From: Escherichia coli
GTDB taxonomy: Bacteria > Pseudomonadota > Gammaproteobacteria > Enterobacterales > Enterobacteriaceae
NCBI RefSeq assembly: GCF_041886205.1
Contig: NZ_CP169029.1
DNA: 64,000 nucleotides
Reading direction: 5' to 3' (one strand)
Position 1 is the stretch's first letter; every line of letters starts with the position of its first letter. Positions 23,542 through 31,023 of the stretch are shown here, one piece after another. Made by a program: the position numbers and the translations under genes. Under the pieces are notes generated by a model. It did no database searches, was not told the origin of the DNA, and saw nothing but the letters and a program-made list of their open reading frames with translations.

Positions 23542-26273
23542 CGCATCTGGAACTGGTTCCCGTCCCGCCTGTCGCGCAACTGGCGGGCGTGAGCCAGCAT
23601 TATGGAAAAACCGTTGCGCTGAACAATATTACTCTCGATATTCCGGCCCGCTGCATGGTCGGGCTGATTGGCCCGGACGGCGTCGGGAAGTCGAGCTTGT
23701 TGTCGTTGATTTCCGGTGCCCGCGTCATTGAGCAGGGCAATGTGATGGTGCTGGGCGGCGATATGCGCGATCCGAAGCATCGCCGCGACGTCTGCCCGCG
23801 CATCGCCTGGATGCCGCAGGGGCTGGGCAAAAACCTCTACCACACCTTGTCGGTGTATGAAAATGTCGATTTTTTCGCTCGCCTGTTCGGTCACGATAAA
23901 GCGGAGCGGGAAGTGCGAATTAATGAGTTGCTGACCAGCACCGGGTTAGCACCGTTTCGCGATCGTCCGGCAGGTAAACTCTCCGGCGGAATGAAGCAAA
24001 AACTTGGGCTGTGCTGTGCGTTAATCCACGACCCGGAACTGTTGATTCTTGATGAGCCAACAACGGGGGTTGACCCGCTCTCCCGCGCCCAGTTCTGGGA
24101 TCTGATCGACAGTATTCGCCAGCGGCAGAGCAATATGAGCGTGCTGGTCGCCACCGCCTATATGGAAGAGGCCGAACGCTTCGACTGGCTGGTAGCGATG
24201 AATGCCGGAGAAGTGCTGGCAACCGGCAGCGCCGAAGAGCTGCGGCAGCAAACGCAAAGCGCCACGCTGGAAGAAGCATTTATTAATCTGTTACCGCAAG
24301 CGCAACGCCAGGCGCATCAGGCGGTAGTGATCCCACCGTATCAACCTGAAAACGCAGAGATTGCCATCGAAGCGCGCGATCTGACCATGCGTTTTGGTTC
24401 CTTTGTTGCCGTTGATCACGTCAATTTCCGCATTCCACGCGGGGAGATTTTTGGATTCCTTGGTTCAAACGGCTGCGGTAAATCCACCACCATGAAAATG
24501 CTTACCGGACTGCTGCCCGCCAGCGAAGGTGAGGCGTGGCTGTTCGGGCAACCGGTTGATCCAAAAGATATCGATACCCGCCGTCGTGTAGGCTATATGT
24601 CGCAGGCGTTTTCGCTCTATAACGAACTCACCGTGCGGCAAAACCTTGAGTTACATGCCCGTTTGTTTCACATCCCGGAAGCGGAAATTCCCGCGCGAGT
24701 GGCTGAAATGAGCGAGCGTTTTAAGCTCAACGACGTTGAAGATGTTCTGCCGGAGTCATTGCCGCTCGGCATTCGCCAGCGGCTTTCGCTGGCGGTGGCG
24801 GTGATTCATCGCCCGGAGATGTTAATCCTCGATGAGCCTACTTCTGGTGTCGATCCGGTGGCGAGGGATATGTTCTGGCAGTTGATGGTCGATCTCTCGC
24901 GCCAGGACAAAGTGACTATCTTCATCTCCACCCACTTTATGAACGAAGCGGAACGTTGCGACCGTATCTCACTGATGCACGCCGGAAAAGTGCTCGCCAG
25001 CGGTACACCGCAGGAACTGGTTGAGAAACGCGGAGCCGCAAGTCTGGAAGAGGCATTTATCGCCTATTTGCAGGAAGCGGCAGGGCAGAGCAACGAAGCC
25101 GAAGCGCCGCCCGTGATACACGACACCACCCACGCGCCGCGTCAAGGATTTAGCCTGCGCCGTTTGTTTAGCTACAGCCGCCGCGAAGCACTGGAATTGC
25201 GCCGCGATCCGGTCCGTTCGACGCTGGCGCTGATGGGAACAGTGATCCTGATGCTGATAATGGGTTACGGCATCAGTATGGATGTGGAAAACCTGCGCTT
25301 TGCGGTGCTCGACCGCGACCAGACCGTCAGTAGCCAGGCGTGGACGCTCAACCTCTCCGGTTCCCGTTACTTTATCGAACAGCCGCCGCTTACCAGTTAT
25401 GACGAGCTTGATCGTCGGATGCGTGCGGGCGATATCACGGTGGCAATTGAGATCCCTCCCAATTTCGGGCGCGATATCGCGCGTGGTACGCCTGTGGAAC
25501 TCGGTGTCTGGATCGACGGAGCGATGCCGAGCCGTGCCGAAACGGTAAAAGGTTACGTGCAGGCCATGCACCAGAGCTGGCTACAGGATGTGGCGAGCCG
25601 ACAATCCACACCCTCCAGCCAAAGCGGGCTGATGAATATTGAGACGCGCTATCGCTATAACCCGGACGTAAAAAGCCTGCCAGCGATTGTTCCGGCGGTG
25701 ATCCCGCTTCTGCTGATGATGATCCCGTCAATGCTAAGCGCCCTTAGCGTGGTGCGGGAAAAAGAGTTGGGGTCGATTATCAACCTTTACGTGACTCCCA
25801 CCACCCGTAGCGAATTTTTGCTTGGCAAACAGCTACCGTACATCGCGCTGGGGATGCTGAACTTTTTCCTGCTCTGTGGCCTGTCGGTGTTTGTGTTTGG
25901 CGTACCGCATAAAGGCAGTTTCCTGACGCTCACCTTGGCGGCGCTGTTGTATATCATCATTGCTACCGGAATGGGGCTGCTGATCTCCACCTTTATGAAA
26001 AGCCAGATTGCCGCCATTTTCGGAACGGCGATTATCACGTTGATCCCGGCGACACAGTTTTCCGGGATGATCGATCCGGTAGCCTCGCTGGAAGGTCCAG
26101 GACGTTGGATCGGCGAGGTTTATCCGACTAGCCATTTTCTGACTATCGCCCGCGGGACGTTCTCGAAGGCGCTGGATCTGACTGATTTGTGGCAACTTTT
26201 TATCCCGTTGCTGATAGCCATACCGCTGGTGATGGGCTTAAGCATCCTGCTGCTGAAAAAACAGGAGGGATGA
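23538..26273 (+). CDS. rbbA: ribosome-associated ATPase RbbA (dual ABC ATPase fused to ABC-2 permease)
   Basis: 911-aa ORF; two Walker A motifs ([18 protein letters not shown]) plus C-terminal TM domain. Confidence 0.93.
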
Positions 26274-27397
26274 TGCGCCATTTACGCAATATTTTTAATC
26301 TGGGTATCAAAGAGTTGCGCAGTCTGCTCGGTGATAAAGCGATGCTGACGCTGATTGTCTTCTCGTTTACGGTGTCGGTGTATTCGTCAGCGACCGTTAC
26401 GCCAGGATCGTTGAACCTCGCGCCGATCGCCATTGCCGATATGGATCAATCGCAGTTATCGAACCGGATCGTTAACAGCTTCTATCGTCCGTGGTTTTTG
26501 CCACCGGAGATGATCACCGCCGATGAGATGGATGCCGGACTGGACGCCGGACGCTATACCTTCGCGATAAATATTCCGCCTAATTTTCAGCGTGATGTCC
26601 TCGCCGGACGCCAGCCGGATATTCAGGTGAACGTCGATGCCACGCGCATGAGCCAGGCATTTACCGGCAATGGGTATATCCAGAATATTATCAACGGTGA
26701 AGTGAACAGCTTTGTCGCGCGCTACCGTGATAACAGCGAACCGTTGGTATCGCTGGAAACCCGGATGCGCTTTAACCCGAACCTCGATCCCGCGTGGTTT
26801 GGCGGGGTGATGGCGATCATCAACAACATTACCATGCTGGCGATTGTATTGACCGGATCGGCGCTGATCCGCGAGCGTGAACACGGCACGGTGGAACACT
26901 TACTGGTGATGCCGATAACGCCGTTTGAGATCATGATGGCGAAGATCTGGTCGATGGGGCTGGTGGTGCTGGTGGTATCGGGATTATCGCTGGTGCTGAT
27001 GGTGAAAGGTGTACTGGGCGTACCGATTGAAGGCTCGATCCCGCTGTTTATGCTGGGCGTGGCGCTCAGTCTGTTTGCCACCACGTCAATCGGCATTTTT
27101 ATGGGGACGATAGCGCGTTCAATGCCGCAACTGGGGCTGCTGGTGATTCTGGTGCTGCTGCCGCTGCAAATGCTTTCCGGTGGTTCCACGCCGCGCGAAA
27201 GTATGCCGCAGATGGTGCAGGACATTATGCTGACCATGCCGACGACACACTTTGTTAGCCTCGCGCAGGCCATTCTCTACCGGGGGGCAGGATTCGAAAT
27301 CGTCTGGCCGCAGTTCCTGACACTGATGGCAATTGGCGGCGCGTTTTTCACCATCGCGCTGCTGCGATTCAGGAAGACGATTGGGACAATGGCGTAA
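26270..27397 (+). CDS. yhhJ: ABC-2 family transporter permease
   Basis: Start MMRHLRNIF overlapping rbbA stop (atgatg/tga); about 375 aa membrane protein. Confidence 0.9.
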
Positions 27398-27405
27398 GGA
27401 AGGGA

Positions 27406-27462
27406 AACTTGACTTCATACTGTGATGTCATACTATTGATGTCATAAAGTGAAGTCATAAGG
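27406..27462 (+). promoter_or_regulatory. putative promoter/operator of HicAB-like module
   Basis: ttgact -35-like hexamer; two direct repeats tgatgtcata bracketed by inverted acttca/tgaagt. Confidence 0.35.
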
Positions 27463-27555
27463 ACATGCCATGAGAACCAAGGTACAGGCTTTACGGAAGA
27501 AACAAAAAAATACATTGGATCAAATATTTAAAATTCCTGTTCCTCAAGGGATCAA

Positions 27556-27744
27556 GTGTCTGATATAGAGTCACTGGTTAAAGCATTAGGCGGAGAAATT
27601 AAGGAAGGAAGAGGTTCGCGTTGTAAGTTCATACTAAATATGAGCGTTGCGTGTTTCCATCGGCCTCATCCGTCGCCAGATACCGATAAAGGCGCTGTAG
27701 AAAGCGTGCGTGACTGGTTACTAAGTATAGGGGTAAAACCATGA
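27556..27744 (+). CDS. HicA-family toxin-like protein (non-canonical)
   Basis: 62-aa ORF, GTG start after aaggg RBS; C-terminal half aligns by eye with HicA (G-S-x-x-K-F ... R-P-H-P ... V-R-D-W-L); overlaps next gene by 4 nt. Confidence 0.7.
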   Translation: MSDIESLVKALGGEIKEGRGSRCKFILNMSVACFHRPHPSPDTDKGAVESVRDWLLSIGVKP

Positions 27745-28100
27745 TCAAACTGAAGACGCCAAACTCTATGGAGATTGCCGGGCAACCTGCTGTTATCACT
27801 TACGTGCCAGAACTGAATGCATTTCGTGGCAAATTCCTGGGCTTGTCAGGTTATTGTGATTTTGTCTCTGACAGCATTCAGGGGCTGCAAAAAGAAGGGG
27901 AACTTTCCCTGCGAGAGTATCTTGAGGATTGTAAAGCTGCGGGTATTGAGCCGTATGCGCGTACAGAAAAGATTAAGACCTTTACGTTACGCTATCCAGA
28001 ATCGCTGAGTGAACGCCTTAATAATGCGGCTGCGCAGCAACAAGTCTCTGTTAATACCTATATTATTGAAACACTGAATGAGCGTTTGAATCATTTATAA
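27741..28100 (+). CDS. HicB-family antitoxin-like protein with C-terminal ribbon-helix-helix
   Basis: 119-aa ORF; HicB-like N-terminal region and C-terminal FTLRYPESLSERLNNAAAQQQVSVNTYIIETL RHH-type DNA-binding motif. Confidence 0.72.
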   Translation: MIKLKTPNSMEIAGQPAVITYVPELNAFRGKFLGLSGYCDFVSDSIQGLQKEGELSLREYLEDCKAAGIEPYARTEKIKTFTLRYPESLSERLNNAAAQQQVSVNTYIIETLNERLNHL

Positions 28101-28154
28101 ATTTTAGCGGCGTACATTACGCAGAATATCTGCCTTTACAGGATCTATCTATGC

Positions 28155-28200
28155 AACTGAACTTAATTTTATAAATTAAGTTCAGTTAATATCTTTTCTT
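28155..28200 (+). terminator. rho-independent terminator after HicB-like gene
   Basis: Perfect 14-bp stem aactgaacttaatt/aattaagttcagtt followed by T-rich tract. Confidence 0.55.

Positions 28201-28219: not shown

Positions 28220-31023
<2,804 letters not shown>

Follow-up and report, generated by a model that had tools for sequence, protein, structure and literature searches.

What reads the cluster of short repeats in front of a hicAB-like gene pair on the E. coli chromosome, and what is its recognition unit? The earlier note on this locus had suggested an operator laid over the promoter of the pair, with two direct repeats as the unit bound by a ribbon-helix-helix (RHH) antitoxin. In the 64 kb window, that is, the whole stretch of DNA analyzed here, the gene order is yhhJ, a 72 bp spacer, hicA, hicB and nikR. 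The ABC permease gene yhhJ (26189-27397, plus strand) has its stop codon at 27397, and the yhhJ-hicA spacer (27398-27469) holds all four of the boxes described below. The hicA pseudogene (27470-27744, plus strand), split into ORFs of 32 and 62 codons, is followed by an intact hicB (27741-28100, plus strand) encoding 119 aa with the Pfam HicB domain PF05534, and the hicB ATG overlaps the hicA stop codon (ATGA). On the opposite strand lies nikR (28220-28621). From sequence comparisons we assign 27409-27459 as the putative promoter-operator of a class-4 hicAB module, read by HicB, with a probability of about 0.8.

The gene model of hicA determines where these repeats lie with respect to the toxin gene. 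The 32-codon ORF that the earlier note had listed separately (27470-27568) does exist from ATG to stop, but we rejected it as a small gene of its own, for it aligns as the 5′ half of hicA. When aligned to six further E. coli alleles, the window is found to be one G short at 27558, in the TGG codon for Trp30 (W30), and this 1 bp deletion splits hicA into the 32-codon ORF and a 62-codon ORF (27556-27744), leaving no intact translatable toxin gene in the window. In strain PT62, which has the identical sequence, PGAP annotates a 'HicA family toxin, frameshifted' followed by a 'HicB family antitoxin'. Of 5426 complete E. coli genomes, only 9, from a variety of hosts, carry this exact frameshift allele. 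The corrected gene model thus places the start of hicA at 27470, frameshifted in this strain, and the operator therefore abuts a Shine-Dalgarno-like sequence instead of lying ~95 bp upstream of a 62-aa toxin gene. This sequence, AAGGA (27459-27463, plus strand), is read from the DNA 6 nt before the hicA ATG and is a plausible ribosome-binding site. A 48-aa ORF on the minus strand (27369-27515) is without support, as it is made of the boxes themselves (ATGACnTCA reads M-T-S).

The spacer carries four in-register boxes of the form TGAnnTCA(TA), starting at 27410, 27423, 27437 and 27450, so that the start-to-start spacing is 13, 14 and 13 bp (layout 0/13/27/40). Each box is 8 bp long and has palindromic arms, TGA-N2-TCA, and the respective 10-mers are TGACTTCATA at 27410, TGATGTCATA at both 27423 and 27437, and TGAAGTCATA at 27450. 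Box 1 (TGACTTCA followed by TA; 27410-27419, plus strand) corresponds to the −35 box in the layout of the relatives, and a box at this offset, 27 bp from the box 3/4 pair, is also present in relatives from Citrobacter sedlakii, Erwinia and Trabulsiella. Box 2 (TGATGTCA and TA; 27423-27432, plus strand) lies in the promoter spacer and is an exact 10 bp copy of box 3 (TGATGTCA and TA; 27437-27446, plus strand), which lies over the predicted transcription start. Box 4 (TGAAGTCA and TA; 27450-27459, plus strand) has its central dinucleotide inverted relative to box 1, the two boxes differing solely in this orientation; a flipped last box is likewise found in Xenorhabdus, Cedecea, Citrobacter and Pantoea relatives.

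This anatomy alters the earlier description of the unit. The two direct repeats are real (27423-27432 and 27437-27446) but are separated by 4 bp (CTAT), not ~5 bp, and instead of forming the recognition unit they are boxes 2 and 3 of four TGA-N2-TCA boxes. The bracketing hexamers ACTTCA (27411-27416) and TGAAGT (27450-27455) can also be found, not as a separate inverted repeat but as parts of boxes 1 and 4. In the whole 64 kb window the pattern TGANNTCATA has four matches, expected 1.24; these are the four boxes, all within 50 bp. The pattern TGANNTCA has 16 matches in the window, 4 of which fall within 48 bp, and an exact 10-mer direct repeat within 10-24 bp occurs at three places in the window versus ~0.9 per shuffle. 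The two-copy 10-mer repeat is therefore unremarkable by itself, and it is the four-box cluster that stands out. As these patterns were defined post hoc, after the site had been seen, the independent test is conservation across genera. Elsewhere in the window, an 18 bp tandem repeat, ATAAATCAGACATAATTT, of ~3.3 copies is located at 19023-19082 within a 569-codon ORF (18515-20224).

A promoter scan found a sigma-70-like TTGACT-16-TACTAT promoter with 9/12 matches, interleaved with the boxes. The −35 hexamer TTGACT (27409-27414, plus strand), which the earlier note had already pointed out, consists of a T and the first five bases of box 1, and the −10 hexamer TACTAT (27431-27436, plus strand) has a natural variant, TAGTAT. 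Judged by the position of the −10 hexamer alone, transcription would start at about 27441-27444. The boxes at 27410-27459 thus lie between the yhhJ stop codon and the hicA ATG and overlap the promoter hexamers.

The same palindromes could instead act as a hairpin in RNA or DNA, either as a terminator or attenuator after yhhJ or as a leader structure controlling the translation or stability of hicA. The RNA of 27400-27475 does fold at −24.6 kcal/mol (z = −4.3; 0 of 200 shuffles as good), with hairpin arms of 21 nt that are 71% complementary. However, the stem is not followed by a T-run (the sequence continues with taaggacatgcc), the terminator scan made no call there, and the predicted start lies inside the stem, so that the hicAB transcript would carry only its 3′ half. 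Among the relatives described below, the folding z-scores range from ~0 to −6, several loci lack excess structure, and no pairing is conserved across 27 loci. Box 1 pairs with box 2 at some loci and the outer boxes with each other at others, so that the pairing seems to be a side effect of the boxes being palindromic. We rejected an intrinsic terminator or structured RNA because the stem in E. coli comes with no T-run, no conserved helix and no Rfam match, and we consider a role as a hairpin very improbable.

For conservation across genera, an alignment of HicB was scanned against contigs of one genome per species, which yielded 49 related loci in the Enterobacterales; 28 non-redundant upstream regions, mostly from unrelated genomic contexts, were kept. 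First-ATG gene calls in these relatives run hicA into the boxes because ATGACnTCA reads as M-T-S, and so they were treated as artefacts and set aside; the conserved LRKKQ motif served as the anchor instead. Over the 120 bp that precede hicA in the 28 regions, boxes reach a density of 23.5 per kb, versus 0.27 per kb in the remainder of these loci (~86-fold). The most widespread upstream 8-mer found de novo is TGACTTCA, present in 27 of the 28 regions. Over 89 boxes, the arms are conserved at T 87, G 88 and A 89 on the left and at T 88, C 89 and A 83 on the right, while the center is mostly CT but also CG, AG, CA or TG, giving the consensus TGAC(T/G)TCA. Adjacent boxes are spaced by 13 bp in 41 of 62 cases and by 26-28 bp in 18 of 62, which leads to a layout of 0/13/39-40/52-53; in other words, the common arrangement in the relatives is [box-N5-box]-N18/19-[box-N5-box].

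The register with the promoter is also shared. Among 27 non-redundant loci, 23 have their best sigma-70-like −35 hexamer starting 1 nt ahead of a box, the hexamer being made of a T and the first five bases of that box, and 24 have a box that starts at most 1 nt from where the best −10 hexamer ends; the promoter spacer is 16-17 nt. An upstream flank is common to just 13 of 325 locus pairs; therefore, synteny does not account for the conservation of the boxes. In Buttiauxella gaviniae (L041:1879-2000), a deletion has left no more than the first five codons of hicA, and the promoter and four boxes now lie directly 5′ of an orphan hicB. Four other loci with a lone or degraded hicB that have lost hicA have no box array upstream, one of them with a single stray TGACTTCA ~570 bp upstream. 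The suggestion of an operator over the HicAB promoter is thus borne out as far as a cis-element is concerned that is co-inherited with the module, keeps a fixed −35/−10 register and is retained when hicA is deleted; it is the anatomy of the unit that had to be redrawn.

The search was also run in reverse, and 2.9 million viral contigs of IMG/VR were searched with the DNA pattern TGACTTCA-N5-TGACTTCA alone. This search returned 42 loci. At 22 of them, the genes that follow immediately on the same strand are of this hicA/hicB family, and the 13 loci in which two matches lie 39-40 bp apart are all among these 22. Another locus (L089:7913-7980) carries a 13 bp tandem repeat, GTGACTTCATAAT, in five copies between metacaspase-like and nuclease-like genes. 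It was rejected as an operator because it is an unrelated tandem repeat with no hicAB nearby, and its likeness to the operator box and period is probably a coincidence of the search pattern.

Alternatively, the reader of the boxes might be a transcription factor of the host instead of HicB, in which case the module would belong to a cellular regulon. Palindromes like TGACGTCA are generic bZIP/CRP-like shapes, and HicB as the binder is itself deduced. Other hicAB promoters carry CRP-type sites (PMC11594946). Against this explanation, the boxes accompany the module in at least 20 genera, between unrelated flanks and on viral contigs; there is no other 13 bp-spaced TGAnnTCA pair elsewhere in the 64 kb window; and an orphan hicB retains the boxes. 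Moreover, the upstream palindromes of distant relatives differ where the strand residues of HicB differ. A HicB of 43% identity with the strand KRLTLRV, encoded on a metagenome contig (L101:857-917), keeps the layout 0/13/40/53, and its operator alternates two box types, TGACACCA and TGACGTCA. Two HicBs of 38-40% identity, with the strands KFSLRV and RFNLRI, have different palindromes adjoining the start codon and no TGAnnTCA boxes upstream. With three distant loci only, the box sequence appears to track the strand residues of HicB in a manner that fits a HicB-specific readout. We therefore regard control by a host factor as very unlikely and return to HicB as the candidate reader.

HicB is the sole protein of the module with a DNA-binding-type domain, as judged by its Pfam match, its Arc-like C-terminus and its structural model. 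It scores 56.8 bits for Pfam PF05534 (cut-off 21), and the model comprises an N-terminal four-stranded sheet with a helix, a linker and two C-terminal helices, the C-terminal β strand being unformed in the monomer. In a Foldseek search, the whole chain has its best PDB match in the Burkholderia pseudomallei HicB 6g26 (probability 1.00, E = 0.02), and 6u0i is also among the best PDB folds for the N-terminal domain, with weak E-values. The C-terminus matches Arc (probability 0.98, rmsd 2.9 over 43 columns), the Arc Pfam model scores 16.5 bits, which is under its cut-off of 20.4, and the HicB family profile finds the RHH domains of Arc and AmrZ in the PDB weakly (E = 0.018). In the profile alignment, KTFTLRYP of HicB stands opposite PQFNLRWP of Arc. 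The segment KTFTLRYPE is invariant in 27 homologues from ~20 genera, so that the Arc-equivalent strand is invariant, as are the TGA/TCA arms of the boxes. Each of these lines of evidence is weak, but they agree in suggesting an Arc-like RHH at the C-terminus of HicB. The module fits HicAB class 4, which is defined by an upstream hicA and a HicB with a C-terminal RHH (Gerdes 2024, PMC10865869); here hicA is upstream and HicB appears to be of the RHH type.

The partner gene, once repaired, encodes a 91-aa HicA that scores 37.6 bits for Pfam HicA_toxin PF07927 (cut-off 27). In its model (pLDDT 92.5), a HicA-like α-β3-α core, which superposes on solved HicA structures with TM scores of 0.65-0.67, is joined by an N-terminal two-helix extension of ~29 aa. 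Characterized HicAs carry the catalytic histidine of a GSH/GSNH motif where this HicA family has GSR. In the family alignment, GSR is invariant and is followed by C, V or I (residues 49-52; 27614-27625 in the window), and the two invariant histidines of the family are found in FHRPHP. Apart from the weak RHH matches to Arc and AmrZ, PDB sequence searches with HicA and HicB, using single sequences and profiles, returned no solved homologue, and no NCBIfam model matches either protein.

The module occurs in 2070 of 5426 complete E. coli genomes (~38%), O157:H7 included, either between yhhJ and nikR or in a neighboring island; among these genomes, the K-12 lineage lacks the yhhJ-nikR hicAB module. 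Its right boundary is placed near 28111, the point at which the copies of O157 and IAI39 diverge. Between hicB and nikR there is an AT-rich hairpin with a 15 bp stem and a T-rich tail (28155-28187), which we rejected as a part of the module since it lies outside this boundary. In E. coli HS-02 (L057:931-950), which has a K-12-like arrangement without the module, aaactTGACTTCAtattgtg follows the yhhJ stop codon and is in turn followed by ISEc1/yhhI. As aaactTGACTTCAtattgtg is a remnant of box 1, its presence in module-less genomes suggests that these once had the module and later lost it or had it replaced.

The E. coli layout 0/13/27/40 departs from that of the family. The Escherichia copy lacks the first box of the common layout because the yhhJ stop codon occupies its place, and its −35 box and downstream pair are retained with the offsets common in the family (0, 27 and 40), as in C. 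sedlakii, in which the module likewise follows yhhJ and TGCTGTCA is found at the position of box 2. Box 2 is an Escherichia-specific extra box. The four-box form is present in ~1285 E. coli genomes, while ~785 carry a three-box allele that lacks exactly one 14 bp unit (TGATGTCATACTAT), equivalent to 27423-27436 in the window and containing box 2. In the three-box allele (L003, L056 and L007), which was verified in IAI1 and Ec1117, the boxes are arranged at 0/13/26 and the TACTAT −10 hexamer is gone, its likely replacement in the sequence being TAAAGT; the hicA ATG there directly precedes TAA. The unit was likely lost via slippage or recombination between the two identical 10-mers, and box 2 may be a by-product of local duplication, not a functional site.

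Extending this to the whole array, the repeats might be devoid of any regulatory role, being debris of slipped-strand duplication or what is left, at the edge of the module, of a site used for integration or recombination. The gain and loss of the 14 bp unit between E. coli alleles, the location of the array at the left edge of the insertion adjoining yhhJ and the persistence of a box 1 remnant in module-less genomes would fit such an origin. Debris, however, would not preserve an 8 bp core, a 13 bp period and the −35/−10 register across genera whose proteins are 60-80% identical, and the array is present on the promoter side only, no matching repeat being found at the right boundary near 28111. 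We give hardly any credence to this explanation and retain the operator as the role of the array.

How might such an operator work? We infer HicB as the binder of the boxes, its stoichiometry, the transcription start and a derepression by HicA as follows. One HicB RHH dimer would bind each TGA-N2-TCA box with its β-ribbon in the major groove, and boxes 13 bp apart would be filled pairwise. Box 1 would cover the −35 hexamer, box 2 the promoter spacer, box 3 the transcription start and box 4 the early leader. Occupancy of the promoter would therefore exclude RNA polymerase, and HicB would repress its own operon. One HicB tetramer could bridge both box pairs, by analogy with the tetrameric RHH HicBs of Y. 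pestis and B. pseudomallei (PMC11594946). A center-to-center distance of 13 bp is not a whole helical turn, and thus simple cooperative binding on the same face is not obvious. [quoted passage not shown]

The states of the two genes in E. coli differ. All annotated E. coli copies inspected encode one and the same HicB (WP_000593555.1), while hicA is frameshifted, interrupted by an internal stop, start-damaged or intact, the latter in four variants (L001-L006, L056 and L058); the start-damaged form begins with ATGTAA and has been re-annotated from a CTG as 76 aa. On the evidence of these alleles, the E. coli toxin decays while the antitoxin and operator are kept. A more far-reaching reading is that E. 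coli, by keeping the operator and an identical HicB, letting the toxin decay and toggling the 14 bp unit, maintains the chromosomal copy as an autoregulated 'anti-addiction' or immunity element, which we regard as speculative and rather unlikely. If it were true, chromosomal HicB would cross-repress, and perhaps neutralize, incoming phage or plasmid hicAB modules with the same TGACTTCA boxes, and the gain or loss of the repeat unit would be a slipped-strand switch of the expression level of the chromosomal module.

Literature searches found no paper describing this operator, and the searchable literature contained no reports of binding, footprints, reporters or transcription starts for this hicAB family. 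Searches for the box sequence together with 'antitoxin', or for the locus in O157 papers, gave nothing relevant; where O157 papers refer to hicAB, the K-12 system is what they cite, and their measurements may concern either locus. What is new here is a concrete candidate, drawn from sequence, for the operator of a widespread enterobacterial HicAB subfamily. The understanding of toxin-antitoxin autoregulation is unchanged, as this would be an ordinary kind of self-repression site. The three- and four-box alleles, the orphan hicB with its operator and the degraded toxins beside an invariant antitoxin are natural variants usable as experiments.

Published HicB proteins autorepress via palindromic operators in the hicAB promoter (PMC10865869; PMC11594946). 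In the HicA3-HicB3 system of Yersinia pestis, these are the operators BS1 and BS2 at PhicA3, consisting of 15 bp inverted repeats (summarized in PMC11594946). The module studied here has in common with this system the hicA-hicB order and a HicB with an N-terminal HicA-binding domain and a C-terminal RHH, the latter being predicted for the present protein. In each case hicA is preceded by a single promoter with two operator units, putative ones here, that flank it or overlap with it, and one unit covers the −10 region. The antitoxin alone represses, which for the present HicB is our reading. In contrast to BS1 and BS2, the unit here consists of two 8 bp boxes 13 bp apart, mostly in the same orientation, and in E. 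coli the two units abut (0/13/27/40). Furthermore, hicA and hicB overlap here, whereas a 174 bp gap separates them in Y. pestis (PMC11594946).

The HicAB of B. pseudomallei provides the best fold match of both the HicB model (6g26) and the core of the HicA model (TM score 0.67). Its HicB is of the RHH type, as predicted for the present one, and its operator overlaps the −10 region (PMC11594946, PMC10865869), but there a single palindromic site stands in place of the four-box array. The two HicBs are 11% identical over the fold alignment, and PDB sequence and profile searches detected no sequence similarity of the present HicB to any solved HicB chain. Toxin-modulated repression is known for B. 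pseudomallei and E. coli K-12 HicAB (PMC10865869). The weakening of DNA binding by HicA, shown for B. pseudomallei, is assumed here and is moot in this strain as hicA is frameshifted. In E. coli K-12, following the logic proposed here, HicB represses a promoter of its own operon via an inverted-repeat operator (hicO at P2; PMC10865869). The K-12 HicB, however, is a helix-turn-helix protein of class 3, and its operon has two promoters and resides at a different locus.

Arc/Mnt, CopG, MetJ and the omega repressor of pSM19035 bind as one RHH dimer per short box and fill their boxes cooperatively over the promoter; compared with all of these, HicB has an extra N-terminal toxin-binding domain. The boxes of omega work in direct or inverted orientation, and the flipping of the central dinucleotide suggests a similar freedom of orientation here. 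The repeat geometry of these repressors is 7 bp heptads for omega, abutting 8 bp met boxes for MetJ and an 11 bp half-site spacing for Arc, whereas here an 8 bp box recurs every 13 bp. The candidate operator is set apart from the known HicAB operators by its box sequence, its paired 8 bp boxes at a 13 bp period and the free orientation of their centers.
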